A stretch of DNA of 64,000 nt from positions 46,910-110,909 of the forward strand of contig CAYRVX010000003.1 of assembly GCA_964427875.1 (NCBI GenBank), read 5' to 3'. This DNA is from an uncultured Planctomycetaceae bacterium. Lineage in GTDB: Bacteria > Planctomycetota > Phycisphaerae > SM23-33. The position numbers were made by a program, and so were the translations under genes. Shown piece after piece: positions 10,371-39,454 of this stretch (position 1 is the first letter of the stretch; each line of letters starts with the position of its first letter). The notes under the pieces are model-generated. The model was not told the DNA's origin, ran no database searches, and worked only from the letters and a program-made list of their open reading frames with translations.

Positions 10371-11816
10371 TCACGCCCGCGCGCTGCTGCGGCGGACTGC
10401 CATGGCGCCGGGCAGCGTCTCGGACTTCTCCCGCACCGTGCCGAGCACGGGGTCCTTGTCGAGGTAGTATTCCCAATGGCTCATCGCATTGAGCATGCGT
10501 TTGCCGCGTCGGCAGTCGTCGATCGTCAGTTTGCCCTCGCGGACCAGATCGTAGTAGGGTCCGAGGTCGGTCTGACGGTACAGGTCCGCGAAGTGCTTGT
10601 AGAACTCCACTCGCGGCATGCGGGTCGGCGTGACGGCGTGGAGCGTGTCGTAGCACGTGTAGTCGTAGGTCAGCAGGTCGTTGAAGCGCTCGCGGTACAG
10701 TTGCGTGCCCACCAGCGGCGTCAGCACGGTGAACTGCGTATGCGTGATCTCCTTCTCGTTGACGTAGTCGCGAAGCCGCTTGAAGTCCTCGGCGGCCCAC
10801 ATCGGGTCCACGATGAACGCGCCCCAGATGATGACGCCGTTGCGCTTGAGGATGCGGATGGCCTCGTCGTTGGTGATCAGCTTGTTGGCCTTGTTCACGC
10901 TGGCGAGCGCCTCGTCCGATGCGCCCTCCAGCCCCAGCAGGATCGCATACAGGCCGACGCCGACCCACTTCTCCACCAGCTCCGGGTGTTTTGCGATGGA
11001 GTCGGTACGTGCCTCCATCGAGAAGCTCATGTCGAGCCCCTCGGCGCTGATCCGGTCGGCCAGCTCGTCTTCCCGGCGGTAGTTCATCAGGAAGTTGTCG
11101 TCCACGAACGTGACGTGGCGCGTCTCGACGTGGCGGATCTCCTCCATGACGCGTGCGGCGGACATCTGCCTCGTTCTGCCGCCGTAGAACTCGTGCACGC
11201 TGCAGAAATTGCACCGGAACGGGCAGCCGCGGCTGGCCGCCACGGACGAGTCCGGCTTGTCGAACAGGAAGAAGTAGTGCCGGCGGTACTTCGCCACGAG
11301 GTCGCGGCGCGGCAGGGCCAGTCGGTCCATGCTCCTGGATTTGGGCACCACGCGGGGGTTTCGCACGAACCGCCCGTCCCGGCTCCGCCAGAGGAGGTTC
11401 GGCACGCCGGCCAGCCCGCGACGGTCCCGGATCGCACGCACGAGGTCCGGGAAGACGAACTCTCCCTCCCCCACCGCGATCGCGTCCACCTGCGGGATCT
11501 GGAAGTCCTCCGGCATCAGCGTGCAGTGGTGCCCGCCGACCACGGTGAAGATCTCGTCGGAGAACTTCTTGACGGCCTGGAGAATGTCCTGGGCGGCGTA
11601 CACCTCCGTCGTCAGGGCGGTCACGCCCGCCAGGTCGGGCTGGAACGCCTCCAGCATGCCAAGAAGGTTTGCGTCGATCCGCATGTCGAGGATGCGCACC
11701 TCGTGCTGCGGCACGCTGCCTGCGAGAATCTCCAGGTGCAGCGGCTCGGGCATCGCCGCCAGGCGGAACCCGAAGCCGGCGATCTGATAATCCGGTTGTA
11801 TGAGCAGAATACGCAT
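10371..11816 (-). CDS. B12-binding-domain radical SAM protein
   Basis: Start at MRILLIQPDYQ (ATG 11816). An N-terminal cobalamin-binding-like domain and the CPFRCNFC (CxxxCxxC) radical-SAM cluster motif. The 711-aa ORF extension upstream is a GC read-through. Confidence 0.75.
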   Translation of the reverse strand: MRILLIQPDYQIAGFGFRLAAMPEPLHLEILAGSVPQHEVRILDMRIDANLLGMLEAFQPDLAGVTALTTEVYAAQDILQAVKKFSDEIFTVVGGHHCTLMPEDFQIPQVDAIAVGEGEFVFPDLVRAIRDRRGLAGVPNLLWRSRDGRFVRNPRVVPKSRSMDRLALPRRDLVAKYRRHYFFLFDKPDSSVAASRGCPFRCNFCSVHEFYGGRTRQMSAARVMEEIRHVETRHVTFVDDNFLMNYRREDELADRISAEGLDMSFSMEARTDSIAKHPELVEKWVGVGLYAILLGLEGASDEALASVNKANKLITNDEAIRILKRNGVIIWGAFIVDPMWAAEDFKRLRDYVNEKEITHTQFTVLTPLVGTQLYRERFNDLLTYDYTCYDTLHAVTPTRMPRVEFYKHFADLYRQTDLGPYYDLVREGKLTIDDCRRGKRMLNAMSHWEYYLDKDPVLGTVREKSETLPGAMAVRRSSARA

Positions 11817-11976
11817 CGGAGCCTCTTGACGAAGTATAATCCGGACCTCACGCTGAGCATCGGCCCATGGGCACTGCCCATCTTGCGCCGGTGCAATGTA
11901 CCAGAAAATGCCGGGATCGCCGAGAAGTTCGCAAAAAGCCCGCGGAGCATTCCGGCGGGACCGCGAAAGGACGCTC

Positions 11977-12669
11977 ATGCCCAGCCAACGCGCCCGCCGG
12001 CTCCTGAGAAGCGTGCTGAAGCTGCTGCGGCGCGCCCACGGCCGGCGGCGTTGGCCGGGACCTCGCGACCCCGTCGACGTGCTCGTGGCGACCATTCTCT
12101 CGCAGAACACCAGCGGCGCCAACAGCGCAGCGGGCTTCCGGCGGCTCAAGGAGCGTTTTGCCACGTGGGACGAGGTCGCCGACGCCCGAGTCCGGGCCAT
12201 CGAGCGATGCATTCGCGTCAGCGGCCTGTCGCGCAGGAAGGCGCCGCGCATTCGCGAGATCCTTCGGCAGCTCCGTTCGGATCGCGGCGGGATCGGCCTC
12301 GCCTTCCTGGCCGAAATGGGCCCCGACCGGGCCTGCCAGGCCCTACTGCGGTTCGACGGCGTCGGCCCGAAAACGGCCCTGTGCGTCCTGATGTTCGCGA
12401 TGGGGATGCCCGTCTTCCCCGTGGACACGCATATCTTCCGCATCACTCGGCGGCTGGGCCTGCTGCCGGACGCCGCGGCGCCCCAGCGGGCGCACGAGGT
12501 CCTCACGCCCCTGATCGCCCCGGCCGACCGCTACGAGATGCACCTGTTGCTGATCGCCCACGGCCGGCGCGTCTGCCGGGCCGGAAGCCCCCAATGCTCC
12601 CGATGCCCTCTCCTGCCGCTGTGCAAGTTCGGGAAGCGCAACGCACCGCGAGCGACAGCCCGGTCTTGA
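11977..12669 (+). CDS. nth: Endonuclease III (HhH-GPD base-excision DNA glycosylase)
   Basis: HhH-GPD motif LLRFDGVGPKTA and a C-terminal 4Fe-4S loop CRAGSPQCSRCPLLPLC. Start chosen at MPSQRARR. Confidence 0.85.
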   Translation: MPSQRARRLLRSVLKLLRRAHGRRRWPGPRDPVDVLVATILSQNTSGANSAAGFRRLKERFATWDEVADARVRAIERCIRVSGLSRRKAPRIREILRQLRSDRGGIGLAFLAEMGPDRACQALLRFDGVGPKTALCVLMFAMGMPVFPVDTHIFRITRRLGLLPDAAAPQRAHEVLTPLIAPADRYEMHLLLIAHGRRVCRAGSPQCSRCPLLPLCKFGKRNAPRATARS

Positions 12670-18080: not shown

Positions 18081-18183
18081 CCCACCGCGGGTCCCGTCCG
18101 TCTCATGTCCTCCAACGCACGACCACGGCTTGCCGGTTGGCGGAACCCCCGAGAGCCCCTGTTTCCCGACAACGGCAATCGGA

Positions 18184-20199
18184 TCACGACTCGCTGCCGG
18201 CGAAGCCGAGGTACTCGTCGAGCCAGTCGTCGGTCCGCAGAACGCCCTTCCGCTGCCGCAGCGCCAGCCGCTCGGCCTTGCCCTGGGAGACGTCAAACAA
18301 CTTGCGGAGAACGCGGGAGGAGATCTCCCGCTCGGTCTTGCCGTGCCGCTTCTTCAGCGGGGCCGTCAGGTGGGGGGAGTACCGCTTCACGAGCTCGTCT
18401 TCCAGGCACACGATCGCGCCGGCCGTGCCCGGGTCGCCCTGCCTGGCCGAGCGGCCGTAAAGCTGGCGGTCGATCCGGCCCGATTCGTGCCGTTCGGTGG
18501 CCAGCACGTGCAGGCCGCCCCGTTCCGCCACGCCCCGCCCGAGCTTGATGTCCGTGCCGCGCCCGGCCATGTTCGTCGCCACCGTGATGCGCCCGGGCTG
18601 GCCGGCCTGCGCGACGATCTGCGCCTCCTCCTTGTGGCGAACGGCGTTGAGGACCTGGTGCTCGAGGTCCTCTGTCTCGAGCATGCGGCTGAGAAGCTCG
18701 CTCGCCCGGACGCTGCGTGTGCCGACGAGAACGGGCCGGCCGGTCTCGTGGACCCGGCGGATCTCGCCAACGATCGCCTTCCACTTGGCCTGCTGCGTGG
18801 CGTAGACGCGGTCGGCGGCGTACTTTCGGATGCACGGCCGGTTGGTCGGGATGATCACCGTGGGGCGGTGGTAGATCTGCCAGAACTCCCGCCAGGCCTC
18901 GACCGCCGTACCCGTCATGCCCGCGAGCTTGCGGTACAGGCGGAAGAACCGCTGAAAGCTGATTCGGGCGTACGTGTCCTTCGGCGGGTTGACCTCGAGG
19001 GTCTCCTTGGCCTCGATGGCCTGGTGCAGCCCGTCGCGCCAGGTGCGGTCGGGCATGAGGCGCCCGGTGAACTCGTCCACGATGACGACCTTGCCCTCGT
19101 CGATGATGTACTGCTTGTCGAGGACGAACAGCTCGCGGGCGCTGAGGGCCTGGATGACCAGCTCCTCTCGCCGCCGCTTGCCGGACCAGATCCCTCCAAA
19201 GGATGCGGCGAGCCGCTCGAGCTTCCTCTTGCCGGCGGGCGTCAGGTCCACCTCCCGGTAGCGATGGTTGACCCGGTAGTCCGTGCCGCGGAGGAACTGG
19301 GAGGCGATCTCGGCGGCCTGGTTGAAGGCCTCGACCTGCTCGGCGTTGGGCGCGTCGCCGGAGATGATCAGCGGCGTGACCGCCTCGTCGATGAGGACCG
19401 AGTCGGCCTCGTCCACGATCGCGTAGTTCACCCCGCGCATGACGAGCCGGTCCGTGCCCGTCCCGGCGCCCTGGGCGATCTTGGTCAGCAGGGCCATCGG
19501 AAGCCCCCGCAGCGACCCCAGCGCGAGGCGGTCGCGGAGGAAATCGGCGGTGACCTCCTTGTTCGTGCAGTAGGTGATGTCGGCCCGGTAAGCACGGCGG
19601 CGGTCCACAGGGGACATCTTCTGCTCGATGTGCGCGGCGGAGAGCCCGCAGAAGGCGTAGATCTTCCCCATCCATTCCGCGTCGCGCTTTGCGAGGTAGT
19701 CGTTGACGGTGATGATGTGGCAGCCCCGGCCGCGCCAGCCGGCGATGGTGGCCGGCAGCGTCGCCGTCAACGTCTTGCCCTCGCCGGTGGCCATCTCGGT
19801 GATGCAGCCGGCGTCCAGCGCCAGCGCGCCGGCAATCTGGACGGGAAAGTGCTTCTCCCCGATCTGCCGGCTGGCGACCTCGCGGACCAGGGCGAACGCG
19901 CGGTGAAGCTGCTGGCGCGTCTCCCTGCCGCGAAGGAACAGCTCGCGGAACGCGCCGGCTTGCTCCTTGAGCTTCGCGTCGCTCATCTCGGCGTAGAGCT
20001 TCTCGTGCCTCAGCACGTGCTTGGCCATCGAGAGGAACCGCTGGCGGCGCGGGGCGAGCTTCCCGGCGATCCCCGCGGCGGCGTCCCACACGGCGTCGAG
20101 CCCCTTGGGCAACTCGTCGCTGCGGGAGCGGTTGGCGAGCATCCGCCAGGTTGTGCTGGGGATCTGCGTCACGTCAGATCTGGAACCTCCGTTGGACAA
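18184..20199 (-). CDS. SecA paralogue (DEAD-motor NBD1-PPXD-NBD2), lacking the C-terminal HWD/CTL of canonical SecA
   Basis: Near-collinear SecA motifs: GEGKTLTATLPA, TVNDYLAKRDAEWMG, VDEADSVLIDEA(V)TPLIISG, KLAGMTGTA, VLVGT, VATNMAGRGTDIKL, GGLHVLATERHESGRIDRQLYGRSARQGDPG. Only ~670 aa. Its start overlaps the upstream M50-HlyD gene end by 26 nt. Confidence 0.8.
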   Translation of the reverse strand: MSNGGSRSDVTQIPSTTWRMLANRSRSDELPKGLDAVWDAAAGIAGKLAPRRQRFLSMAKHVLRHEKLYAEMSDAKLKEQAGAFRELFLRGRETRQQLHRAFALVREVASRQIGEKHFPVQIAGALALDAGCITEMATGEGKTLTATLPATIAGWRGRGCHIITVNDYLAKRDAEWMGKIYAFCGLSAAHIEQKMSPVDRRRAYRADITYCTNKEVTADFLRDRLALGSLRGLPMALLTKIAQGAGTGTDRLVMRGVNYAIVDEADSVLIDEAVTPLIISGDAPNAEQVEAFNQAAEIASQFLRGTDYRVNHRYREVDLTPAGKRKLERLAASFGGIWSGKRRREELVIQALSARELFVLDKQYIIDEGKVVIVDEFTGRLMPDRTWRDGLHQAIEAKETLEVNPPKDTYARISFQRFFRLYRKLAGMTGTAVEAWREFWQIYHRPTVIIPTNRPCIRKYAADRVYATQQAKWKAIVGEIRRVHETGRPVLVGTRSVRASELLSRMLETEDLEHQVLNAVRHKEEAQIVAQAGQPGRITVATNMAGRGTDIKLGRGVAERGGLHVLATERHESGRIDRQLYGRSARQGDPGTAGAIVCLEDELVKRYSPHLTAPLKKRHGKTEREISSRVLRKLFDVSQGKAERLALRQRKGVLRTDDWLDEYLGFAGSES

Positions 20200-22774
20200 G
20201 CTGGAGGATGGAGCGGTACCACTGGCCGGCCAGCGGGCGGCTCGGCATCTCGACGCGGACGACGACCCGCTGACCGCTGAGAAGCGGGCATCTGCCCCGC
20301 CAGGCGCTGTCCGGGTCGGCCACCGGATCGGACACGATGCGGATCTCGAAGAACCGCTCGGTGGCCTTCTTGCCGCGCGGGTCTTTCGGGTCGGTCTGGA
20401 TGGACCCCCCCGCGGCGTAGCCCAGCGCGGCGGAGGGGAGCTGCTCCCTTCCGGCCTCTATGATCTGGCGGATTCGGCCGGTCATGGGCGGATCGGGCAG
20501 GCCCTTGATGCGGATCTCGATCCCGCGCCAGGGCACCTTTCGGCGGGCGAGCACCTGGGCGTACTCCCGCCCGTTGATGCGGACGATGGCCAGGTCCTCG
20601 ATGGCCTGGTGGTCACGGGGGACCTCCCCGAGGCGGATGTGGACGGTGTGGAGCTTCTCTCCTGCGGCGGGCTCGGCGGACTGGCCGGCGTTCGAGTCCG
20701 CGGCCGGGCGAGGGGTGAGTGAGGCGTTGGGATCGGCGTTGGCGTCGACGGCCTTGGCGCCGAGACCGGCGTCTTCCGGCTCGATCCGCTGCACGACGAA
20801 GCCGACAGGCTCGTCGGGGCGGCCGGCCAGGATGAGTTGGCCGGTCAACTCCTCCTGCTTCGCGGCGGCTGTCCGCAGCGCCGCCCGGATGTCGGCGGCG
20901 GCCTCGGCGGGGAGGTGAAGCTCATAGAGGTCGGTAGGCCGGCCAAGCAGCATGTCGGCCACCTCTTGCCTCGCCGTGGCGCGGATGATGACCTCCCGGC
21001 TTGCGACGAGCCCGATCTGGTCGCCCCGGCGGAGGTACGCCCCGCGGGCGCGGTCGATCTTCGGGGCGATCCATTCGCCGTCCAGCCCGGCGCGGATGAC
21101 CAGGTCCTCGCGCTTCTCCTCGACGCGGTGGATCCGCTCGTCGAGCGCGGCGATCCGCTCGGCGAGGATCTGGGCGGCCGCGACGTCCTGAGTCTGGGCG
21201 AGCAGGCGCTGGGCCACGAGCTGGCGCCGCTCGGCCAGGAACTGCTCGTGCTGGGCAAGGAGCTCGGGGCTTTCCCCCGTCAGCAGCGGCTCGCCGTCGC
21301 GCTTGACCGGCCGGCCGGAACCCAACGTGCCCGTCACGAAGCCGTCGGTGGCGGCGTGGACGATCTGGAGGCGCTGCGGCTCGACCACGCCGTCGAGGCG
21401 GAACCGGTCCGGCGCGGGGACGAAGCCGATGCCGCCGACGATCAGTCCCAGGACCAGGAAGGTGGTGGCCATCGCGCGGGCCCGGACGCGGGTCAGCTCG
21501 CCGCTCGTGGCCAGGTACCGGAAGAACTTGCCCAGCGGTACGAGCACCCAGGTCACCGCCGCGGCCGTCGCCAGGATCACACCCAACATGAACAGCTTGC
21601 TCGCGACGAACAGGAGAATCCGCACGCAGATGAACACGCGGTAGAGGGTCGAGGCGATGCCGTAGAAGACGAACCATGCCTTCTCGCCGCGGGTGTGGGC
21701 GGGGTTGCGCGCCTGGCGAACGTTCCAGACGTACTTCTTGACCAGGTAGTAGATGTACTGCTTGGATCGCTGGGCAAGGTTGGGGATCTCCAGGATGTCC
21801 GAGAGGATGTAGTACCCGTCGTATCGCAGCAGCGGGTTGGCGTTGAAGAGGATCGTCGAGACGCTGGCGATGAACATCGCGTTGTAGCAGATGGTTCGCA
21901 GCGTGCCCTTGCCGACGTGGGCCCACACGATCGCCGCGACGGCCGCCAGCGCCAGCTCGATGATCATGCCCCCGCAACTGACGGTGATCCGCTGGCGCCG
22001 CGACCGGAACGCCCACGCGCTGGAGGCGTCCATGTACGGCATCGGCGTGAACACCAGGAACATGATGCCCATCACGTGGACTTCTCCCCCCGTGCCCGTC
22101 CGCCGGCCGAACGTCTTGCACATGAACGCGTGGCCAAATTCGTGGCAGACCTTGATCAGCACGAAGCTCAGGTACAGGAACGGCAGGTTCTCGACGTCCA
22201 GCACGTTCTCGGCCCGGCTGGACAGGTCGGACCAGTTCTCGATGACGAAGTACAGGCCCGTGCCGATCAGCCCCAGCCAGAGCAGAAAGCCGAACCACGT
22301 GAACAGCCAGGATATCGCGCCGACCCAGGCGTTCAGGAAGTTGTCCGGGTCGATCAGGGGGATGCGGATGAACAGGAGGTTCATCAGGTAGCCCTGGACC
22401 TCCCGGCGGACGCGTTTCTGGTAGCGTTTGAACAGCCCCTCCGCGTCGGGCGGCAGCTCGGCGTGCAGCAGGTTGGACGTGTAGAGCTGCCCGAGCAGTT
22501 GGATGGCCTCGCCCTGGGTGGGGGCGCCGTCGCCCAACTGGTCGGAGCAGATCCGCCAGACCTGCGCGACGGTCCTCCGCCCGTCCAGGAGGGACACGAA
22601 GCGATACGCCGCCTCGTTCAACCGGAAGTACTGGTTGCTGGAGGGGTCCTGGAGGACGTGCCACATCCGCCCCCGGTAGTGCTGGCGGTGGACCTGAACG
22701 GTGGTCCTCAGCCGCGGAGACAGCTCCGCGACACGGTACCACGATTCGCTGAATGTGGGGCGGTCAACAGGCAC
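20174..22774 (-). CDS. Tri-domain membrane protein: PqqD-like (RRE) domain + M50/site-2-protease-type zinc metalloprotease + HlyD-family periplasmic adaptor
   Basis: N-terminus YFRLNEAAYRFVSLLDGRRTVAQV (cf. PqqD KLNETAAAILELVDGRRDVAAI). An HEFGHA zinc motif in a TM helix plus NANPLLRYDGYY (S2P N..P....DG). A C-terminal coiled coil and beta-barrel typical of HlyD (RIHRVEEKREDL..., SPIDG-like). Confidence 0.75.
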   Translation of the reverse strand: MPVDRPTFSESWYRVAELSPRLRTTVQVHRQHYRGRMWHVLQDPSSNQYFRLNEAAYRFVSLLDGRRTVAQVWRICSDQLGDGAPTQGEAIQLLGQLYTSNLLHAELPPDAEGLFKRYQKRVRREVQGYLMNLLFIRIPLIDPDNFLNAWVGAISWLFTWFGFLLWLGLIGTGLYFVIENWSDLSSRAENVLDVENLPFLYLSFVLIKVCHEFGHAFMCKTFGRRTGTGGEVHVMGIMFLVFTPMPYMDASSAWAFRSRRQRITVSCGGMIIELALAAVAAIVWAHVGKGTLRTICYNAMFIASVSTILFNANPLLRYDGYYILSDILEIPNLAQRSKQYIYYLVKKYVWNVRQARNPAHTRGEKAWFVFYGIASTLYRVFICVRILLFVASKLFMLGVILATAAAVTWVLVPLGKFFRYLATSGELTRVRARAMATTFLVLGLIVGGIGFVPAPDRFRLDGVVEPQRLQIVHAATDGFVTGTLGSGRPVKRDGEPLLTGESPELLAQHEQFLAERRQLVAQRLLAQTQDVAAAQILAERIAALDERIHRVEEKREDLVIRAGLDGEWIAPKIDRARGAYLRRGDQIGLVASREVIIRATARQEVADMLLGRPTDLYELHLPAEAAADIRAALRTAAAKQEELTGQLILAGRPDEPVGFVVQRIEPEDAGLGAKAVDANADPNASLTPRPAADSNAGQSAEPAAGEKLHTVHIRLGEVPRDHQAIEDLAIVRINGREYAQVLARRKVPWRGIEIRIKGLPDPPMTGRIRQIIEAGREQLPSAALGYAAGGSIQTDPKDPRGKKATERFFEIRIVSDPVADPDSAWRGRCPLLSGQRVVVRVEMPSRPLAGQWYRSILQLVQRRFQI

Positions 22775-22806: not shown

Positions 22807-25149
22807 CTACAGCCACAGCTTCATCCGGACCCAGTTGACCAGCCGGCGAGTCCAGATGTACCCGTAGCTCCGCCAATCGATGTCGATCTTGCCGACCCCC
22901 TCCATGCCCGGGCGGAGGATCTGGCGCGTCGCCGCCAGCCGGACCCGGACCTTGAAGACGTTCTCCTGCTCGACCACCTCGGCCACCGGATTAATCCGCT
23001 CGACGGTGAAGGCGATGCGTTCCTCCGGCAGGGCCGTGGTGGCCAGCTTGCCGGTGAGCTCCCTGTTCTCCCGCCGGGCCCTCTCCAGGGCGAGCTGGAC
23101 GTCGCCGATGAGGTCCTCCCGCACGGACAGCTCGCCTCGAAGGTCGGCGAGCGAGGCGATCTCAAACAGGACGTCGCCGGTCTTGACCGGCGCGCCGAGC
23201 TGGCGCTGGAGGTCGCCGGAGACGACATACCCGTCGATGGGCGAGACGAGCACGGCCTGGGCGATCCGGTGTTCGAGCAGCTTGATTCGCGCGGCGACCT
23301 GTTCGGCCTGGGCGCGGGCGATCTGGCTCTCGGCCCGCTTGTCTTCCCGCATGGCGGCGTCCGCCTGCTTGAGGTATGCCAGCTTCTCGGCCTCGGCCGA
23401 CATCAACTGGAGCCTGAGGTCCGCCGTCTCGAGCGTCCCCAGGACGGTCGGGCCCGGCGAGATCCTGCCGCGGAAGGCCGCGGCCAGGAGCGAGCGGTTC
23501 AGCTCCACCAGCCGGACGCCGCGCAGCGTGCCGGCCTCCAGCGCCGCCAGGAGGTCCTTGCGGCGCTCGGTCAGCTTGACATGCCGCCACGCGTCGGCGC
23601 TGTAGAACGTTCGCGTCGCCAGCAGCGCGTTCAGGTCGGCGAGCACGGCGGCGCGGGTGGCCTCGTCGATGCCCGCGATGGCGAGCTTGACCGCCTCGTT
23701 CGGGTCGACGGGCGCCGCCGATTCCACGGCCCGGCGAGTCTCTTCGCTCAGCAGCGACCAGACGTGCTTGCCGACGGAAGGCGCCTCGGCCGCCGCCCGG
23801 GCGCGGATCCCGGTCAGCAGGCCGGGCCAGTCCGAAACGTGGTGGTCCTCCAGAAGCCAGGACGGCTCGTCCGTCTTCGCGCCGCTGACCATGTCGCCCG
23901 GGAGGACGTACGCCCGCTTGAGGTAACCCTCGAACGGGGTGGGCACGACCTGCTGCGTGGTGGCCTCGAGCACGAAAGACGCCTCGGCGCGGTACTTCCC
24001 CTTGGCCAGGATGAGGAACAGGATCAGCGCGCAGATGGCGATGCCGGCGACCTTGATCCAGGTGTGTTTGGGTCCCAGTATGGTGGCGAGGCCGCTTCTT
24101 GCGGCCGCGGCGGCGCGGGCGCCGAACCAGCGGTCCTGTTTGTGGAGGCCCGCCAGCCGGGGGGTGCACAGGTCGCAGGCCAGCCGAAGCGACTCCACCT
24201 CATCGAACGCGAACGGCTCCTCGGCGAGACGTTCAAGCGTCAGCACGGCGGCGACGTCCTGGTCCCGCCGCAGCGGGAGGCCCAGAATCGCCGTCGGGCC
24301 GTGCTTCTTGGAAAGCTCTCTCGTGGCGCGGTTGACGAACGTTGTGCCCTGCGGAGCCGGACACAAGACCTCCACGTCCTGGTCCAGGGTCTCTTCCATC
24401 GCCGCCTCGATGTCCTGAACGAGCTGCATCTTGCGGCTGAACTTCTCGGTGTGGCTCATGGCCTTCAGATGGACGTACCGCCCCTTGAGGAAGCCCAGCG
24501 AGACCCGGTCGCAGTGCCAGCGGCTGGAGACCTCGTTGCACATGGCCATGGCCGCCCCCTTGAACCGGTCCTGCTCGTTGACGGCGGCGGTCGTCTCCAT
24601 GGCCAGCCGCAGGCGCATGAGGTCTCCCTGGCGCTGCTGAAGCGTCAGCCGCATCTCGTAAAGGCTCAGGAGGCTGACGGTCAGTTCCAGCCGCTGCTGC
24701 GTGGCGGCGAGCACGGCCGAGTCACTGCTGGCGACGACAAAGGTCGCCAGCCCCAGCACGCCGCTGCCGCCTCGCAGCGGGACCATGACCAGGTGCCTGC
24801 TGGCGGGCTGGCCGTACAGGTCGTCCGGCCCGTGGACGGGCTTGATGGTGGTCTTGCTCCCCGCGACGACGGCCGGTGCGGATTCAGCCGACTGGGCCAG
24901 CCAGACCGGCGCGGTCGAGCCGGGGGCCGGCTGGGGGTACACCGCCAGGATCTCCACTTGCTGATCGGCGCCGATCCGGAGAATCGCGCCGCCGTTGGCG
25001 GCGGCCAGGTGGCACTGAACGGCCAGCAGATTGACGAGGAACTGCTCCGGCGGGCCGTCGAATCGGCTAAGCCTCTCGATCATCTCGACCATCGTGGGCC
25101 GCTGCTGATCGGAGGATTCGTCGGAAACTCGAGCGGGATTGATGGTCAT
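22807..25149 (-). CDS. GAF-domain(s) + TM + HlyD-family membrane-fusion protein
   Basis: Two cytoplasmic GAF-like regions in ~1-400 aa. A TM helix IKVAGIAICALILFLILA. Then HlyD-like coiled coil/barrel: VSPIDGYVVSGDL, GDVLFEIASL. Confidence 0.7.
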   Translation of the reverse strand: MTINPARVSDESSDQQRPTMVEMIERLSRFDGPPEQFLVNLLAVQCHLAAANGGAILRIGADQQVEILAVYPQPAPGSTAPVWLAQSAESAPAVVAGSKTTIKPVHGPDDLYGQPASRHLVMVPLRGGSGVLGLATFVVASSDSAVLAATQQRLELTVSLLSLYEMRLTLQQRQGDLMRLRLAMETTAAVNEQDRFKGAAMAMCNEVSSRWHCDRVSLGFLKGRYVHLKAMSHTEKFSRKMQLVQDIEAAMEETLDQDVEVLCPAPQGTTFVNRATRELSKKHGPTAILGLPLRRDQDVAAVLTLERLAEEPFAFDEVESLRLACDLCTPRLAGLHKQDRWFGARAAAAARSGLATILGPKHTWIKVAGIAICALILFLILAKGKYRAEASFVLEATTQQVVPTPFEGYLKRAYVLPGDMVSGAKTDEPSWLLEDHHVSDWPGLLTGIRARAAAEAPSVGKHVWSLLSEETRRAVESAAPVDPNEAVKLAIAGIDEATRAAVLADLNALLATRTFYSADAWRHVKLTERRKDLLAALEAGTLRGVRLVELNRSLLAAAFRGRISPGPTVLGTLETADLRLQLMSAEAEKLAYLKQADAAMREDKRAESQIARAQAEQVAARIKLLEHRIAQAVLVSPIDGYVVSGDLQRQLGAPVKTGDVLFEIASLADLRGELSVREDLIGDVQLALERARRENRELTGKLATTALPEERIAFTVERINPVAEVVEQENVFKVRVRLAATRQILRPGMEGVGKIDIDWRSYGYIWTRRLVNWVRMKLWL

Positions 25150-25160
25150 CTGCTGCTATC

Positions 25161-26075
25161 TCATCTTGTCGGCCGCGCCGCGACCTCCCCGGCCTTCGAG
25201 CCGCCGGGCGAAGCCGTCCTCTTCCCGCCGGGAAAGCTGACGTACACGCGCTCGCCCGCCGGCCTGCCGGTGGAATTCGGCGCCTCGACCCGGACCGTCA
25301 GGGTGCCGCTGGCAGCGTCGGCGACGGCGACAATGTGGGCGATCCTCGCATCCACCAGCAGCGGACGGCTGACGTCATCCGTCTCAAACTCCACGACGGC
25401 CTTGCCGCCCTTCTTCAGACGGCGGGCCCGGCCGAGCGGAACGGGAACGTCGACCCAGAGCGGATCGATCTTGACCACGCGAATGACCCGCTCCAGTGCA
25501 TCGACCGACTCGCCTTCCTCCACCAGCCCCTGCGCCAGCGGCTTGCCCGGCCCGGGGAGGGGACGCTCCACCACCCCGTCGATGGGGCTCTTGAGCCGCA
25601 TGCGGGCATGCTGGATGCACGCCTCGCGGTACTTCCGCTGGTCCTGCTTGCGCTGAAACTTGGCCAGGTCCAGCGAGAGCTCGGAGATCTTCACCTCGAG
25701 GACGGCGTGATCGACCTCCATCTTGGTGGCCGCTCCGTTATCGAACGCCCATTCTTTCTGTTTGAGGTCGACTCTTTTCTGGGCGAGTTGGGCTTCGGCG
25801 GCCTTGACGCGGGTCTCGTCTTCGGCCTGGGCCTTTAGCTGTTCGAGCTGCGCCAACTCGGCTTCGTCGTCGAGCCGGATGAGCTCCTGGCCGGCTTTGA
25901 CCTCGTCGCCCTCTTTGACGAGCACCTTGGCGACGCGGCCGGGGCGAATGAACGATAGGGTCGCGTCGCTGCTGGGCTTGGTGAAGGCCTCAATCCGGTC
26001 CTGCCCCCAGAGGCTCGGGCAGGCGCCCAGCGCCACAAGCACAAGACTCAACACGGGGTTCCTTCTCGCTGTCAT
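25161..26075 (-). CDS. HlyD / efflux-adaptor (biotin-lipoyl-like) family protein with signal peptide
   Basis: MTARRNPVLSLVLVALGAC signal. A lipoyl-like KAGQELIRLD, a coiled-coil, and KSPIDGVV. 304 aa. First gene of the 4-gene operon. Confidence 0.7.
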   Translation of the reverse strand: MTARRNPVLSLVLVALGACPSLWGQDRIEAFTKPSSDATLSFIRPGRVAKVLVKEGDEVKAGQELIRLDDEAELAQLEQLKAQAEDETRVKAAEAQLAQKRVDLKQKEWAFDNGAATKMEVDHAVLEVKISELSLDLAKFQRKQDQRKYREACIQHARMRLKSPIDGVVERPLPGPGKPLAQGLVEEGESVDALERVIRVVKIDPLWVDVPVPLGRARRLKKGGKAVVEFETDDVSRPLLVDARIAHIVAVADAASGTLTVRVEAPNSTGRPAGERVYVSFPGGKRTASPGGSKAGEVAARPTR

Positions 26076-26349: not shown

Positions 26350-27876
26350 ATGATGGTGTCGATCAAACACTTGCCGCCGGAGGCGCTGTCGGCCCTGGTG
26401 GACGCTTCGGCGGCGATCAACTCCGCCCTGGGTCTCGACGAGACGCTGGCGGCGATTGCGCGCGCGGCCGCGTCGGTGATGCGGGCCGAGGCTTCCAGCG
26501 TTATTGTCCTGGACGAGACCCGCGGCAAGCAGGTGTTCCGGGCGGCCGTCGGTGACCGCGCCGATCAGCTCCAGGGCCTGGCCTACGATCGGGCTCTGGG
26601 CATCTCCGGCAAGGTGCTGGTGAGCGGGGAGGCCGAGATCGTTAACGACGTCTCCAAGGAGCGGTCCCATTACCACGAGATCGACGCGCTGGTGGCGTTC
26701 GAGACCCGCAGCCTCATTGCCGCCCCCCTGATCAACAAGGGCCGGACCCTCGGCGTCGTCGAGGTGCTGAACCCGGTGCAGTCCGAGCTGTTCGCCGAAG
26801 AGGACAGGCAGTTGTGCAAGGTCTTTGCCAACCTCGCGGCCATCGCGATGGCCAACGCACAGCTCTACGACCGCATCCAGCGCGAGAACGACCAACTGAA
26901 GCAGACCTACCAGCCGGCCGAGGAGATCGTCGGCATCTCCGCGGGAATGGAGAACGTCAGGAACCTGATCCGCCGGGTCTCGCGCTCGTCGGCCACCGTC
27001 CTGCTGCTGGGCGAGACGGGCACCGGCAAGGAGATCGCCGCCAGGACGGTCCACGCCGAGTCCGACCGGGGGGGCAAGCCCTTCGTGGCCATCAACTGCG
27101 CGGCCCTGCCGGAGACGCTCCTGGAAAGCGAGCTCTTCGGACACGAGGCGGGGGCGTTCACCGGAGCGGTGGAACGAAAGCTCGGCCGCTTCGAGCTGGC
27201 CGAGGGAGGCACGCTGTTCCTCGACGAGATCGCCGAGGTGGCCCCGAGCATCCAGGTGACGTTGCTTCGGGCCCTCCAGGAGAAGGAGATTGTCCGGGTC
27301 GGCGGCACGGAGACGATCGGGTGCGACGTGCGGATCGTCGCGGCGACCAACCGCGACCTCGCCGAGGAGATGAGGGCCCACAGGTTCCGAGAGGACTTGT
27401 ACTACCGGCTGAACGTCTTTCCGATCGAGATCCCCCCCCTCCGGGAACGGAGAGAGGACATCCCGCTGCTGGTGGACCACTTCATCCGTCACGTGGCGTC
27501 CGAGATGAAGATGCCCGTGCCGATTCTCTCCCCCGAGGCCATGACGGCACTGACGCAGTACGATTATCCCGGGAACATCCGGGAGTTGCAGAACATCCTG
27601 GAGCGGGCGTGCCTGCTGTGCTGCCGGATGGACGGCGCCTGGCCGCGGCCCCAGCCGATCGGGCCGGAGCACCTCCCGAGGGAGTTGGCCGGCGAGATCC
27701 AGCCGGGTGCCCCCGGCGAGTCGGCCCTGGCGGCCTCCGAGAAGGGCATGATCGTAAAGGCCCTCCGCGAGAACGCCTGGAACCAGACCAAGGCGGCCAG
27801 GGCCCTCGGCATTACCCGCGACAACATCCGCTACCGGATCCGCAAGTACAAGATACAGCTCCCCCAAAAGGGCTGA
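26350..27876 (+). CDS. Sigma-54-dependent transcriptional activator (GAF sensor + AAA+ sigma54-interaction + Fis-type HTH)
   Basis: GETGTGKE Walker A, the GAFTGA sigma54-contact motif, ELFGHE, and a C-terminal HTH ([22 protein letters not shown]). An N-terminal GAF domain. Start at MMVSIKHL. Confidence 0.88.
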
Positions 27877-28225: not shown

Positions 28226-31200
28226 GTGAGCAATCTGAACTGGCAGCCGCCGCTGTTCGAGCAAATGGAGCCCCGTTTGCTGCTCAGCGCTTCACCGGTG
28301 CCGGAGGAGATCGACCTTCCGGCCTTCAGTGAGCAGTGCGTCACGGGCGGCCTCGACGTCGGCGAATCGCAGATGTACGTCTTCACCGCGGCGGCCAGCG
28401 GGTACGTCTACATGAACATGGGGGCCGCCGAAGGCAGCGGGGTCGATTCCTACCTGGAGGCCTTCAACTCCGGCCTGCGCAGGATCGCCCGGAACAACAA
28501 CGCCAGCAGGTACACTCAGGACAGCCGGATCCGCCTGCGCGTTAGCACGGGGCGCACGTACTACGTCCGCGCGAGGGGCGCCGCAGGAACCGATGGCGAC
28601 TACGAGCTGACGCTCACCAGCCGGCCGTACGACGACTACGGCAACACCGCCGAGGCGGCCAGGGCCCTGCGGGTCCGCCGGAGCGGCTCGACGTCGGCTC
28701 GCGGCAGGATCAACTGCGTCGGCGACACGGACTGGCTGTCGTACACGGCCCGCGACGACGGCCTGGTGCGTGTACGGATGCTCGCCTACGGCCGAGGTAA
28801 CAAGCTGGTCGGCTCGCTCGGCGTCTACGACGCCGCCGGCAACCTCATCACCAGCCAGGTCGCAGAGGAGAGCCACTGGTTCGAGCTGAGCTTCTCGGCG
28901 CTCAAGGGGCAGACGTATTACCTGGAGGCCTCCGGCGGGGAGAACACCACGGGCAGATACCTGGTCAAGGTGCTGCCGATGATCCTTCAGGAGTTCATCG
29001 ACGCAGAGGAGGTGGACCTTCCTGCCTTCAGCGAGCAGTCCGTCACGGGCGGCCTCGACGTCGGCGGGACCCAGATGTACAAGTTCACCGCGACGGCCAG
29101 CGGGTACGTCTACCTGAACATGAAGGCCGCCGAAGGCAGCGAGATCGACTCCTATCTGGAGGTCTTCAACCCCGGCCAGCGGAGGATCGCCCGGAACAGC
29201 AACGCCAACAGGTACACTCAGGACAGCCGTATCCGCCTCCGCGTTCGCGCGGGGCGCACGTACTACGTCCGCGCGAGGGCCGCCGGAGGGACCGAGGGCG
29301 ACTACGAGCTGACGCTCACCAGCCGGCCGTACGACGACTACGGCAACACCGCCGAGGCGGCCAGGGCCCTGCGGGTCCGCCGGAACGGCTCGACGGCGGC
29401 GCGGGGCAGGATCAACTGCATCGGCGACACGGACTACTTCTCGTACACCGCGCGGGGCAGCGGCCTGGTGCAGGTGCAGATGATCGCCTACGGCCGATGG
29501 AACAAGCTGTCCGGCATGCTCAACGTCTACGACGCCGCCGGCGACATGATCGCCAGCGATCACGGCGGCGTGGGCGGCACGTCCGCCCTGAGCTTTTCGG
29601 CGGTTAAGGGACAGACGTACTACATGGCGGCCTCCAGCGACGACAACAGCACGGGCAGATACCTGATGAAGGTGCTGCCGATAATCCCGCAGGAGTTCAT
29701 CGACGCGGAGGAGGTGGACGTCCCGGCCTATGGCGAGGAAACCGCCGCCGGCGCCCTCGACGTCGGCGGGACCAAGATGTACAAGTTCACCGCGGCGACC
29801 AGCGCGTATCTCTATCTGGACATGGCCGCCGCCGACGGAAGCGCGATCGACTCCTACCTGGAGGTCTTCAACTCCGCCCGGCGCAGGATCGCCCGGAACA
29901 ACAACGCCAGCAGGTACAATCGGGACAGCCGGGTCCGCATCCGCGTTCGGGCCGGCCAGACCTACTACGTCCGCGCCAGGGCCGCCCGGGGAACCGAGGG
30001 CGACTACGAGCTGACCTTCACGAGCCGGCCCAACGACGACGCGGGCAACGACATCGATCACGCCGCGTACCTTCAGCTCGAAAGCGACGGCTCCCGCCAG
30101 GCCCACGGGAAGGTCAACTATGCCGGCGACATCGACGTGCTGGAGATCGTCGCCCCCGTGACCGGCGAGATGACCGTGACGGCTGCGGCGCCCGGCGGGG
30201 ACGGCAGCATCACGCCGAGGCTCCGGGCCGATGACTCCACTGGCGAGCAACTGGTGATCGACGAAGACGGCGACGCCGCCTGCACCGTCACGTTCGGCGT
30301 GGTCGAGGGCGAGACGTACTACCTGAGGATCGCCAGCCTGGACGACAACACGGGCCGGTACGAGCTGATGGTGTCGACCGACACGGACGTCGATCCGGAC
30401 CCGGCCCCCGACCCCGACCCCGACCCGGACCCGGTTCCGCCCGACGATCCCACGCCGGGCGAGCTCGTCACGGGATGGATCAGCGAGGAGCCGGGCGGCT
30501 ACCGGCTGATCGTCGCCGGGACCGACAGCAGCGACATCATCACGCTGAGCGTCAGCGGCTCGGTGACGACGCTCACCTACGCCAGCGGCTCACTCGACTT
30601 CGCCGGCGTCTTCGACGACATCTCGATCTACGGCTTCGGCGGCGACGACGTGATCCGCATGGACTACTCGATCGCCGGCTCGGGCATCGTCTACGCCGGC
30701 GAGGGCAACGACACGGTATACGACAACAGCCTCGGCGCCGCAGGCGTGTACGGCGGGGCGGGCGACGACCTGCTGATCAGCCTCGGCGGCGGCGTGGACA
30801 GCCTCTGGGGCCAGGCGGGCTGCGACAGCTTCTGGGTGGACATGGGCGACTCGCTCGGCGACGCCGACTCCGCCGAGTACGACGCGACGGCCGTCCACCG
30901 AATCACTCAGTTCTATCAGCCCTACTCCGCGGTCCCCGGCTCTGCGGATTACGTCTCGATGGAGATCGCCGGGCAGAACTTCCGCGACCCCACACCCACC
31001 AGCTACGGGCGAGCGTGGGTGAACTTCGCGAGCAACCCGCTCTTTGCCGACGGGCCGGAACACAACGACATCCGCCAGGGCTCGGTAGGCGACTGCTACT
31101 TCCTGGCGTGCCTGGCCAGCATGTCCGACAGCGACCCGAACGTGATCCGCCAGATGGTGACGGCCCTGGGTGACGGGACGTACGCGGTGCGGTTCTTCCG

Positions 31201-31714
31201 CGGCGGTCAAGCCTCCTACCTCCGACTCGACGCCGACCTGCCCGTCTACTCCGGCAGCAGCCTCAGCTACGCCAAGCTGACGCCGGACGGCGAGACCTGG
31301 GTGGCGATCGTCGAGAAGGCCTACTGCCATTTCCGGTACGGCCAGAACTCCTACGCCTCCATCAGCGGCGGGTGGATGAGCACCGTCTTCCAGGAGATGA
31401 CCAACCGGCCCACCACCACCATGTGGACGGGCGGGTCGCAGGCGTCCCTGGCGAGCTTCATCATCTCCGCCCTCGACAGCGGGCACGCGGCCACCCTCGG
31501 AAGCTACGGTAACGCCCCCTCGCCGATCGTCGGATCGCACGCGTACATGCTCAAGTCGATCGAGTTCGTCGAGGGCGAGGCGATCGTGACGGTCTACAAT
31601 CCCTGGGGAGTGGACGGAAAGACCTACGACAGCAACTACAGCGACGGCCTGTTGAGGCTCGACCTGTCGCAGGTGCAGGCTTGCTTCTCGGCCATCGTCA
31701 TCAGCCTGGCATAG
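28226..31714 (+). CDS. Giant secreted protein: 3 tandem units of paired PPC (pre-peptidase C-terminal)-like domains + Asp/Pro linker + RTX-type Ca-binding repeats + calpain-like (C2) cysteine protease domain
   Basis: GTG start with RBS AGGAG 7 nt upstream. The N-terminus carries PPLFEQMEPRLLLSA. Three ~236-aa repeats each hold the PPC-like signature GDTDW/YxSYTA...YDAAGN...GQTYY. A linker reads PDPAPDPDPDPDP. Gly-Asp repeats GFGGDDVIRMD / GEGNDTV / GGAGDDLL. Calpain motifs QGSVGDCYFLACLAS (Cys), SHAY (His), NPWG (Asn). Confidence 0.78.
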   Translation: MSNLNWQPPLFEQMEPRLLLSASPVPEEIDLPAFSEQCVTGGLDVGESQMYVFTAAASGYVYMNMGAAEGSGVDSYLEAFNSGLRRIARNNNASRYTQDSRIRLRVSTGRTYYVRARGAAGTDGDYELTLTSRPYDDYGNTAEAARALRVRRSGSTSARGRINCVGDTDWLSYTARDDGLVRVRMLAYGRGNKLVGSLGVYDAAGNLITSQVAEESHWFELSFSALKGQTYYLEASGGENTTGRYLVKVLPMILQEFIDAEEVDLPAFSEQSVTGGLDVGGTQMYKFTATASGYVYLNMKAAEGSEIDSYLEVFNPGQRRIARNSNANRYTQDSRIRLRVRAGRTYYVRARAAGGTEGDYELTLTSRPYDDYGNTAEAARALRVRRNGSTAARGRINCIGDTDYFSYTARGSGLVQVQMIAYGRWNKLSGMLNVYDAAGDMIASDHGGVGGTSALSFSAVKGQTYYMAASSDDNSTGRYLMKVLPIIPQEFIDAEEVDVPAYGEETAAGALDVGGTKMYKFTAATSAYLYLDMAAADGSAIDSYLEVFNSARRRIARNNNASRYNRDSRVRIRVRAGQTYYVRARAARGTEGDYELTFTSRPNDDAGNDIDHAAYLQLESDGSRQAHGKVNYAGDIDVLEIVAPVTGEMTVTAAAPGGDGSITPRLRADDSTGEQLVIDEDGDAACTVTFGVVEGETYYLRIASLDDNTGRYELMVSTDTDVDPDPAPDPDPDPDPVPPDDPTPGELVTGWISEEPGGYRLIVAGTDSSDIITLSVSGSVTTLTYASGSLDFAGVFDDISIYGFGGDDVIRMDYSIAGSGIVYAGEGNDTVYDNSLGAAGVYGGAGDDLLISLGGGVDSLWGQAGCDSFWVDMGDSLGDADSAEYDATAVHRITQFYQPYSAVPGSADYVSMEIAGQNFRDPTPTSYGRAWVNFASNPLFADGPEHNDIRQGSVGDCYFLACLASMSDSDPNVIRQMVTALGDGTYAVRFFRGGQASYLRLDADLPVYSGSSLSYAKLTPDGETWVAIVEKAYCHFRYGQNSYASISGGWMSTVFQEMTNRPTTTMWTGGSQASLASFIISALDSGHAATLGSYGNAPSPIVGSHAYMLKSIEFVEGEAIVTVYNPWGVDGKTYDSNYSDGLLRLDLSQVQACFSAIVISLA
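28290..30410 (+). repeat. Three tandem ~708-bp intragenic DNA repeats (high nucleotide identity) encoding the PPC-like domain pairs
   Basis: Near-identical strings recur at ~28320, ~29020 and ~29725 (ccttcagcgagcagtccgtcacgggcggcctcgacgtcggcgg...). The protein repeats share >70% identity. Confidence 0.7.
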
Positions 31715-31800: not shown

Positions 31801-31904
31801 CTCACCTTTCCGGGAACCTTTCTGCGCGAAAACGTCAAATAGGAATAGAGATCGTGCGGATGAAGTCGTGATTTGCGCGCTCTTGCACAGGTGTAAATGG
31901 AAAC

Positions 31905-36149: not shown

Positions 36150-36153
36150 AACG

Positions 36154-38154: not shown

Positions 38155-38453
38155 GGCATGGTTCAAACATGCGCAGCCGGTAGCCGAAGCGGCCAGGGCC
38201 TTGGCACATTTGTGAGCCCAAGATCCGAAGGTCGTTGCCGGCTGCCGGCTGCCGGCTGCGCTGGTCTCGTGGCGACCGGTCCGTTACCGCCGAGCCGACT
38301 GCAACCAAACACTGACCCCTGCTGAACCAACCCCGAATCACCCCCGGCAAAATCTTGCGCCCGCCCTCGTAAATGCCTATTTCACAGGTGTTTATAGACG
38401 CAATCGCCCAAAATGGCTTTGTTTCGTAAAAAGACTTATGCCGGACCATTCGC

Positions 38454-38498
38454 AGCCACAAAGGTCACAAAGGTCACAAAGGTCACAGAGGTCACGGG
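38454..38498 (+). repeat. Tandem 9-mer (aggtcacaa) x4-5
   Basis: gccacaaaggtcacaaaggtcacaaaggtcacagaggtcacgg. An inverted partial copy aagtgaccg lies at 38511-38519. Confidence 0.8.
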
Positions 38499-38542
38499 GT
38501 AGATAACTCAAAGTGACCGATTCGCCAGCTTCCCGGGAGGTG

Positions 38543-38732
38543 CTCGTTGACTCGTGAATTCGTTAACTCGTTGATTCGTCAAGAACTCCGCCCTGGCCAC
38601 TCGGCGGATTCGTTGCACGACCCATGGCAGCCGGCACAGCTTCTCAGTTGCCGAGCCAGCAAAGCAAAGCCCAACATCTCTTCGGGCAATATCTTTCCAG
38701 TTAACGAGTTAACGAATTAACGGATCAACGGG
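38543..38732 (+). repeat. Pair of ~28-bp inverted repeats (cgttgactcgtgaattcgttaactcgtt / aacgagttaacgaattaacggatcaacg) bracketing ~130 bp: a MITE-like or protein-binding element
   Basis: Arm 1 at 38543-38572. Arm 2 at 38703-38732, which is the reverse complement with 2-3 mismatches. The arms are built from cgtt(a/g)a(c/t)tcgtt sub-repeats. Confidence 0.6.
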
Positions 38733-39080
38733 CAACCCGTAAGCCAATCAGGATCGGTCAGTTTGAGTAGATAAGATATCGAAATGGCGTGCTTTTGCAA
38801 ACGCGCAACGGACAGAGTGTTCTCTCACGGCCCCGAGCGTTTCTGTCGTAACCGCCTGCAAAATCATAACCTTTGTGTTCTTTGTGCCCTCTGTGGCGAA
38901 CAATCCGCGTTTGGCTTCGTTTCGCGTTTTTCTTCTGATCCGCCGCCTTCCTTTTCCTTGTGATCACGATCCCCCCGTAGCAGGCATATACATCTCGCAG
39001 CCCTTTTTGCACAACGAAAATCGCCAGATTGCAGAAAAACTTCCGGCCGCGCCCGCCGGCAAGGGCGGGCGTAGGCTGAA

Positions 39081-39233
39081 GGTCGTAGGTCATAGGTCGT
39101 AGGTCGTAGGGCAGACCGTGGGACCGGATACCGTGGGGCCGTGGGACCGGATACCGTCGGACCGCAAGACCGTGCCACCGGATACCGTCAGACCGGCAAT
39201 CGTCCTCGTCGTCGTCCTCGTCCTCGTCCTCGG
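39081..39233 (+). repeat. Consecutive micro/minisatellite blocks: (ggtcgtag)x4, a ~23-bp unit (ccgtgggaccggataccgt) x3, and (cgtcct)x5
   Basis: Read directly: ggtcgtaggtcataggtcgtaggtcgtagg; gaccgtgggaccggataccgtggggccgtgggaccggataccgtcgg...ccgtgccaccggataccgt; cgtcctcgtcgtcgtcctcgtcctcgtcctcgg. Confidence 0.8.
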
Positions 39234-39246
39234 CCGTCTCTTCTCG

Positions 39247-39450
39247 GGGTTCCGAGTTCCGGCCTCCTCGGGGGCAGGCGGCCGTGCCGGCCGCCGTTAA
39301 ACGCTCCGCGCCTCCCTGCCCGGTAGGCAGCCTCCGGGTTCCGAGTTCCGAGTTCCGACCTCTTCGGGGCCAGGCGGCCGTGCCGGCCGCCGTTAAACGC
39401 TCCGCGCTCCGGGCTCCGGGTTCCGAGTTCCGCCTTCCCGGTTCCCGCTT
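39247..39450 (+). repeat. ~96-bp-period direct repeat (2 full + 1 partial copies), each with the perfect palindrome ggcggccg-tgc-cggccgcc and (gttccga)n
   Basis: Copies at 39247-39311 and 39337-39407 (gttccgagttccg.cctc.tcgggg.caggcggccgtgccggccgccgttaaacgctccgcgc). A partial copy sits at 39416-39450. Confidence 0.75.
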
Positions 39451-39454
39451 GCGA

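Follow-up and report, generated by a model that had tools for sequence, protein, structure and literature searches.

A short SecA-like ATPase encoded with HlyD- and M50-type proteins as the candidate motor of a proposed ABC transporter-independent exporter for LEPR-XLL proteins

Textbooks describe SecA as the motor of the general Sec pathway, and in the 64,000-nucleotide stretch of DNA analyzed here (the window; contig CAYRVX010000003.1 from an uncultured Planctomycetaceae bacterium) a shortened SecA homolog is encoded at the end of an operon of HlyD-type genes. What could such a protein drive? In the best reading of the sequence, the gene would encode an ATPase that works from the cytoplasm as the motor of a conserved export module spanning the envelope. 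On balance, this module is favored here as a putative exporter of proteins with an N-terminal LEPR-XLL signature, similar in plan to a type I secretion system (T1SS) but independent of any ATP-binding cassette (ABC) transporter and powered by the SecA-like protein.

The minus-strand gene spans 18184-20142 and probably starts at the ATG at 20142. The 652-residue product is a short SecA-like ATPase with nucleotide-binding domain 1 (NBD1), the preprotein cross-linking domain (PPXD), NBD2, one scaffold helix, and the tail "...VLRxDxWLDExLxFAG"; the helical wing domain (HWD), two-helix finger, and C-terminal linker (CTL) are missing. The longest minus-strand open reading frame (ORF) is 18184-20199 (671 residues from a TTG), which exactly matches the span flagged in a first-pass annotation of this DNA and places the probable start 57 nt inside the edge of that ORF. 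The ATG is preferred over the TTG at 20199 because the source-contig annotation (Ga0309839_1000152, JGI 3300028837) calls the gene as 652 residues from 20142, because this is the commonest length among the closest homologs, and because the TTG would overlap the gene ending at 20174; the ATG leaves 31 nt behind that upstream stop. The GC content at third codon positions (GC3) of the minus-strand frame is 0.91, like that of genuine genes in the window, whose GC content of ~68% gives rise to long spurious ORFs overlapping every genuine gene. The plus-strand ORF at 18130-20280 (716 residues) was rejected as one of these: it is rich in Ala, Gly, Pro, and Arg, lacks domain-like features and SecA motifs, and lies opposite the real gene. 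No second secA was found in the 64-kb window, which covers part of a 166-kb metagenome contig.

The Pfam profiles SecA_DEAD (E = 4e-102), SecA_PP_bind (1e-27), and P-loop_SecA (2e-60) matched the protein, and SecA_SW (PF07516, wing/scaffold) was unmatched in the same scan. All catalytic motifs of a SecA-like protein are intact, including Walker A (MATGEGKTL), the DEAD box (VDEADSVLIDEA), TNMAGRGTDI, and GRxGRQGDPG; in this family DEAD takes the place of the canonical DEVD. When compared with PDB sequences using phmmer, residues 47-643 (numbered on a 653-residue version, window:18184-20145:-) aligned with residues 29-604 of B. subtilis SecA (E = 4e-146). The final aligned stretch, RKGVLRTDDWLD, lies opposite RKQLLQYDDVL, the start of the long scaffold helix, and the protein end, RKGVLRTDDWLDEY, pairs with this same segment. 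An AlphaFold2 model generated from an alignment of 102 diverse family members (pLDDT 93.9, pTM 0.92) contains a lone terminal helix (residues 611-649), after which the chain ends. Foldseek searches with the model returned SecA structures exclusively, with TM-scores of 0.78-0.80 to SecY-engaged SecA (5eul, 6itc, 3dl8, 3din) and a further match to E. coli SecA-N68, an engineered truncation (PDB 5k9t). The first-pass annotation had described a SecA paralog that covers about the N-terminal 620 residues, ends ~230 residues early, and is missing the HWD and CTL, and the Pfam, phmmer, and AlphaFold2 results agree with that description. It had also suggested checking whether the two-helix finger is retained; the finger is absent from both the PDB alignment and the model. 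Wing domain, two-helix finger, and C-terminal tail are all missing, so that the protein has kept none of the C-terminal elements through which canonical SecA and SecA2 work with SecY, and the absence of the finger makes canonical-type SecY-directed pushing unlikely. Separately, NBD1 carries a family-specific insertion of ~20 residues after LRDRLALG (~209-233 in the 653-residue numbering) that is absent from canonical SecA, is poorly conserved in sequence, and is modeled with a pLDDT of 78-80.

The short SecA is encoded by the last of four minus-strand genes with junctions of 11, 32, and 31 nt. The first gene (25161-26075) encodes a 304-residue periplasmic adaptor of HlyD/RND_mfp type that carries a lipoprotein-like signal (…ALGAC…) and scores 103.5 bits with TIGR01730, above the cut-off of 94.9. 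The second (22807-25149) encodes a 780-residue protein in which GAF domains are joined through a single transmembrane segment (364-382) to a periplasmic HlyD adaptor containing a clade-specific insertion (~427-560). The 866-residue product of the third (20174-22774) is a fusion of a cytoplasmic domain (~39-103) resembling PqqD and the recognition element (RRE) of ribosomally synthesized and posttranslationally modified peptide (RiPP) pathways, a polytopic membrane part resembling M50/site-2 proteases (S2P) with the zinc motifs HEFGH (211-215) and NPLLRYDG (313-320), and a periplasmic HlyD-type region (~466-866). The PqqD match covers the full Pfam model, and the HExxH and NPxxxxDG motifs are kept, together with the PqqD-like region, across 122 homologs, very distant ones included. 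The first ~416 residues span the whole NCBIfam daptide HExxH protease model (5.8e-48) with a score below the equivalog cut-off, and proteins of this type are named "putative peptide zinc metalloprotease" or "PqqD family peptide modification chaperone" in JGI and NCBI records. The operonic position noted in the first-pass annotation, behind three adaptor genes, is therefore correct as far as HlyD-type domains are concerned, but only the first is a plain adaptor, the others being GAF-transmembrane-HlyD and PqqD/RRE-M50-HlyD proteins. Its proposal of a dedicated motor, rather than the housekeeping translocase, is most likely right. No ABC transporter gene occurs in this operon or in any related locus examined. 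As a separate matter, an anti-phage defense system was considered and rejected, since none of the four operon proteins had a PADLOC match.

The identical gene order, set in unrelated flanks, recurs in each Planctomycetota locus that reaches upstream of the SecA gene, and it is also found in members that are merely 40-49% identical. Four annotated alphaproteobacterial replicons carry the module, and source names add other clades (Desulfovibrio, Opitutales); four short contigs (L084, L090, L092, and L093, in the numbering used here for loci of relatives) offer little gene context. An OEP/TolC gene lies within the locus in L086, L103-L113, and Methylosinus. In most clades the module also contains a small DUF3467 gene encoding ~93-125 residues (L001 5542-5919; L002 5508-5861; L089 2351-2686; L123 8608-8913; L124 9692-9973; L126 9409-9729; L127 9415-9756). 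In Alphaproteobacteria it always follows immediately after a giant LEPR-XLL gene, and within Phycisphaerae the protein is >70% conserved across its folded length. Genes for PAS-GGDEF-EAL proteins (c-di-GMP turnover) were also seen in or beside the module in L087 (3311-6232) and L098 (16647-19721), recalling the c-di-GMP-dependent regulation of LapA and other T1SS adhesins.

The candidate cargos are recurrent neighbors of the module that share an N-terminal motif. In the window, the plus-strand gene at 28226-31714 encodes a 1,162-residue protein with a LEPR-XLL N terminus (…LFEQMEPRLLLSAS…, residues 10-26), a DUF2846 domain, and a C-terminal calpain-type Peptidase_C2 domain. Residues 10-26 score 25.1 bits against NF012209 ("LEPR-XLL domain-containing protein"; cut-off 17 bits), and this product, encoded ~2 kb from the operon, is the sole LEPR-XLL protein of the 64-kb window. 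In L005, whose SecA-like protein is 79% identical to that of the window, a homolog of this candidate (46% identity) is encoded on the same strand as the module and immediately upstream of it. In divergent loci the module is adjoined immediately downstream by DUF4347/cadherin/Big_9 repeat proteins (L087, L088, L098) or immediately upstream by Big_9/cadherin/PKD proteins followed by a TolC-type OEP (L104-L113); a protein of >5,400 residues is its neighbor in L086; an M10/reprolysin-like protease is encoded upstream in L089. The common motif reads LLEPMEPRLLFSAD in L098, FEELEQRLLFSAD in L087, IETLEPRIMLSAD in L084, VESLEPRYLLSAV in L086, VEELEPRVLLSAG in L099, MEELEPRLLFSAD in L100, and FEQMEPRLLLSAS in the window protein. 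A loose regular expression for it gave 6 matches in 1.07 million residues of open frames from 122 loci, and the five N-terminal matches listed all belong to module neighbors; for the N termini of seven given proteins, chance alone predicts ~0.005 matches. All five neighbor N termini tested reached the NF012209 cut-off (17.3-30.8 bits).

The same association extends to cultured Alphaproteobacteria. In Pontibrevibacter nitratireducens, a 10,603-residue neighbor named "LEPR-XLL domain-containing protein" by PGAP (motif LDPMEPRVLLSAD) is followed on the same strand by genes for DUF3467, a 618-residue adaptor, a "PqqD family" protein, the short SecA (labeled "DEAD/DEAH box helicase"), and an HlyD adaptor. 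Matching layouts were found in Mesorhizobium ciceri (10,518 residues), Methylosinus sp. C49 (8,847 residues, the operon here including TolC), and Pseudosulfitobacter (12,737 residues), and the giants of these three bear the motif (FEALEPRLLLSAD, FDTLEPRVLLNAD, and LETFEPRVLLSAD). A LEPR-XLL protein adjoins the module in 11 independent loci, this window included. The portions of the candidate cargos that were covered, which seldom include the C terminus, contain 0-1 GGxGxD motifs. Collectively, gene neighborhood and motif statistics suggest that the LEPR-XLL proteins are likely the cargo of the module.

The domain content suggests how such a machine might operate. The RRE domains of RiPP pathways serve to bind leader peptides, and in the proposed scheme the LEPR-XLL N terminus would be a leader bound by the PqqD/RRE-like domain. 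The SecA-like motor would dock at the cytoplasmic face of the M50 and GAF membrane proteins, clamp the unfolded cargo, and use ATP to feed it into a channel made by the M50 transmembrane domain. The M50 protease may cut off the leader, much as the C39 domain does in peptidase-containing ABC exporters. The three HlyD domains would form a periplasmic conduit to a TolC-like channel, and the GAF domains might gate the machine in response to a small-ligand signal. The net result would be a type-I-like system in which the ABC transporter has been exchanged for an M50 membrane protein and a SecA-derived motor. A more specific formulation, which has about an even chance of being correct, is that of a distinct ABC-independent secretion system for giant proteins, in which LEPR-XLL is an N-terminal sorting signal read by the PqqD/RRE-like domain and DUF3467 is an accessory for cargo handling. 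The cargos in that formulation would be the 8,800-12,700-residue proteins found here and possibly the 20,000-36,000-residue LEPRxLL proteins of Chlorochromatium.

The operon arrangement itself was published in 2015 by Kamneva, Poudel, and Ward (PLoS One; PMC4452313), who described secondary SecA_DEAD proteins that have lost SecA_SW, reported them from phyla including Planctomycetes, and found them always co-encoded with HlyD, GAF-HlyD, and Peptidase_M50-HlyD proteins, with an OEP gene occasionally nearby. Those authors suggested that ATPase activity resides in the SecA-like protein, with the M50 protein as a possible pore, termed the biological role "completely unknown", and placed the family as sister to actinobacterial SecA2 (PMC4452313). 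The gene studied here is a member of that known but experimentally uncharacterized family: it encodes SecA_DEAD, PPXD, and NBD2 without SecA_SW, has three HlyD partners, and falls in a clade apart from canonical SecA. The text of PMC4452313 makes no mention of PqqD, DUF3467, adhesins, or cargo, and no later functional study of the module was found in the searchable literature, within which the LEPR-XLL cargo link and the RRE-like domain appear unreported. A 2026 preprint describes LEPRxLL giants of Chl. chlorochromatii that lack known transport signals and places a horizontally acquired "secA" (Cag_1676, possibly of the short form) within the co-expression cluster of these giants.

Other functions could be assigned to the same genes. 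One unlikely alternative is the maturation and export of a RiPP or other small peptide, in which the PqqD/RRE domain would bind a precursor, the M50 protein would cut its leader in a YydH/daptide-like manner, and the SecA-like and HlyD proteins would pump out the product. The PqqD match across the whole model is consistent with this, as are the end-to-end match to the daptide HExxH model (5.8e-48), a match to the YydH/LiaK model (8e-10), and the protein names pointing to a peptide protease or PqqD chaperone. However, the daptide and YydH/LiaK scores are well under their cut-offs, and the neighborhoods contain no conserved precursor-like small gene or modifying enzyme. DUF3467, the one small gene that is conserved, does not look like a precursor, its product being >70% conserved across its folded length, and the recurrent neighbors are proteins of 1,000-12,700 residues. 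Also improbable is a role in regulated intramembrane proteolysis or signaling, without secretion, where a GAF sensor would govern the S2P protease and the SecA-like ATPase would unfold or extract a membrane substrate. The intact M50/S2P catalytic motifs, the GAF domains, and the sigma-54 activator or GGDEF-EAL genes that adjoin some loci would fit such a role, but three HlyD-type adaptor domains and, in many loci, a TolC-type channel point to a trans-envelope conduit, and there is no conserved anti-sigma/sigma factor pair.

The protein could also be an accessory motor of SecA2 type that acts on housekeeping SecYEG for a subset of Sec substrates, with the HlyD proteins working downstream in the periplasm. 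Its clear homology to SecA, its intact PPXD clamp, the sister relationship to actinobacterial SecA2 in the tree of Kamneva et al. (PMC4452313), and an AlphaFold2 model closest to SecY-engaged SecA would all accord with this. Against it, only one scaffold helix remains, wing domain and two-helix finger are missing, no secY2 or asp genes are near, and the module neighbors bear a charged LEPR-XLL N terminus instead of a Sec signal peptide. Every NCBIfam SecA2 model was far under its cut-off (TIGR04397, 587 vs. 1085; TIGR03714, 516 vs. 930; TIGR04221, 461 vs. 725; NF012136, 458 vs. 1100). Solved SecA2 chains (778-786 residues) extend ~165-180 residues beyond the end of the short SecA, so the first-pass statement that this kind of shortening is typical of SecA2 is incorrect and the SecA2 analogy is misleading. 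Taken together, this evidence makes a SecA2-type role very unlikely. Canonical SecA models were likewise under cut-off (NF009538, 660.5 vs. 814; TIGR00963, 638.9 vs. 800), and in a crude neighbor-joining tree of 145 sequences, from which SecA2 was left out, nine canonical-length proteins formed their own clade with zero short members, placing the protein outside the canonical SecA clade that the first-pass annotation had raised as a possible home. The short SecA thus belongs neither with canonical SecA nor with SecA2 as conventionally understood.

The short form is widespread. Its 120 best homologs (70-97% identity) are all 650-679 residues long, and an exhaustive search of 1.84 billion representatives, each standing for one 50%-identity cluster, placed ~135 of the 150 top clusters at 627-721 residues and 40-65% identity. 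All 136 aligned short forms stop 0-7 residues from the query end and share the terminal motif. The short length is natural, and the mis-called stop that the first-pass annotation had allowed for is excluded by the conservation of both end point and terminal motif. In a scan of species-representative genomes, ten loci, all from Planctomycetota, had full-length identities of 67-80%, and next came a group at ≤48% that resembles the canonical SecAs of many phyla, none of whose loci have module genes nearby. A decayed or truncated secA, whether a pseudogene, an assembly artifact, or a mis-called stop, would account for a protein 150-250 residues shorter than canonical SecA but is ruled out by the conservation of length and C-terminal motif over ~130 clusters from several phyla, and has next to no probability given also the GC3 of 0.91, the intact catalytic motifs, the confident AlphaFold2 model, and an identical neighboring gene on an independent JGI contig record. 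In the Alphaproteobacteria with a plasmid-borne short form, the essentiality of secA implies a chromosomal secA as well. A 642-residue short SecA-like protein in L091 (10001-11929), alone amid respiratory-chain and two-component genes without HlyD or M50 neighbors, falls closer to canonical SecAs in the clustering and could represent another type of truncated SecA. RefSeq/PGAP names for the short SecA vary ("DEAD/DEAH box helicase", "prepilin peptidase", "translocase"; L123 14001-15962, L124 13968-15953, L126 13887-15803, L127 13806-15788), and no dedicated NCBIfam model exists for it or for the PqqD-M50-HlyD protein.

Several points weigh against the export of LEPR-XLL proteins by this module. 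Secretion, ATPase activity, and the protein-protein contacts of the model are all predicted from sequence. The M50/S2P family is known for proteases, not protein-conducting channels, and to our knowledge there is no established translocation mechanism for a SecA without the two-helix finger. The M50 region of the 866-residue protein is a divergent member of its family (Pfam score 23.9, below the gathering threshold of 27.2), and the neighbor-joining tree is crude and contains no SecA2. In the window, tblastn with three OEP queries detected no TolC/OEP gene, the operon lacks DUF3467 (as it does in the nearest relatives, L004-L006), and the candidate cargo gene is divergent from the operon with a regulator gene between them. 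No LEPR-XLL gene lies within 10 kb of the module at planctomycete loci L001, L002, L009, L010, and L012, and the L088 neighbor has a Sec-type signal peptide instead of the motif, the one visible exception.

The intervening regulator gene (26350-27876, plus strand) encodes a sigma-54 activator with GAF-AAA+-HTH_8 architecture and is also adjacent in the relative L006. It is only a candidate regulator of the operon; no convincing sigma-54 promoter was found upstream of the operon, window-wide matches being at chance level. The candidate cargo that follows has an architecture (LEPR-XLL, DUF2846, and Peptidase_C2) that is unusual in bacteria. Beside it, 31872-36149 (plus strand) encodes a 1,425-residue protein with a signal peptide, TPR, and Secretin_N and no listed match to the Secretin C-domain, followed by a 680-residue lipoprotein-like protein with no Pfam match (36112-38154, plus strand). 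The subclade formed by the window and L004-L006 has ~135-residue periplasmic insertions in the GAF-HlyD (~427-560) and M50-HlyD (~615-750) proteins, as judged against the 626- and 725-residue forms of other Planctomycetota, and is the same one that lacks an operon DUF3467. A hidden or fused DUF3467 in the window was rejected, as there was no tblastn match and the N terminus of the GAF protein aligns to unfused relatives. Farther away, a B12-binding radical SAM protein (10371-12530, minus strand), ~6 kb from the module, is not conserved beside other modules and is probably unrelated. The region at approximately 38000-44400, with a GC content of 0.60-0.62 compared to ~0.68 elsewhere, is bounded at its end by a gene for an Mrr-type restriction endonuclease (43544-44320) and may be an acquired island.

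If the module does export LEPR-XLL proteins, a stripped-down form of the Sec motor has apparently been recruited to a type-I-like exporter without an ABC transporter. The widespread and unexplained LEPR-XLL signature would then gain a function, and there would be a testable route for the exit of giant surface proteins that have no known transport signals. Cultured, plasmid-borne examples are available in Mesorhizobium (M. ciceri R30), Methylosinus (sp. C49), Pontibrevibacter, and Pseudosulfitobacter (DSM 107133), and Methylobacterium extorquens AM1 (META1p2399-2402) is a further cultured carrier.

Known systems share parts of this design. SecA2 structures keep the scaffold domain and the two-helix finger, and their partners are SecYEG or SecY2. 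Like the SecA2 proteins of Actinobacteria and Firmicutes (PDB 4uaq, 6sxh), the short SecA is a shortened and presumably second SecA paralog, probably dedicated to particular substrates, that has kept the DEAD motor and PPXD; SecA2 is ~780 residues long, and the short SecA sits with HlyD/M50 genes. SecA-N68 is a deregulated, highly active ATPase from which the inhibitory IRA1 element has been removed. Its architecture (5k9t), a DEAD motor and PPXD without the C-terminal domain, is near-identical to that of the short SecA, but N68 is a laboratory fragment, whereas here the truncation is natural and ancient and leaves one scaffold helix and the terminal motif in place. By analogy, regulation of the short SecA is presumably supplied by its partner proteins. 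With RRE-dependent RiPP leader peptidases (NF041824, NF058609), the 866-residue protein shares the order of PqqD-like domain and HExxH protease and a full-length match to the daptide model; it differs in its sub-equivalog scores, its HlyD fusion, the lack of tailoring and precursor genes, and its very large neighbors. Nothing essential separates the window from the loci described by Kamneva and colleagues (PMC4452313), which have the same domain content and partners, except that the window subclade lacks an operon DUF3467 and that both its GAF protein and its M50 protein carry insertions. The closest functional analogy is with the T1SS, in particular the peptidase-containing ABC transporters (PCATs), such as that for colicin V. 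These share the tripartite logic of an energized inner-membrane unit, HlyD adaptors, and a TolC channel, the last encoded at many related loci though not found in the window, together with an adjacent cargo gene, often for a giant repeat adhesin; here, as in PCATs, an N-terminal leader might be cut off by a protease that is part of the inner-membrane unit. In contrast to these systems, the module has no ABC transporter: its ATPase is soluble and SecA-derived, its membrane unit is of M50 type in place of an ABC transmembrane domain with C39, its HlyD domains are distributed over three distinct proteins, and its putative signal is an N-terminal LEPR-XLL sequence, as opposed to a C-terminal/RTX signal or a double-glycine leader.

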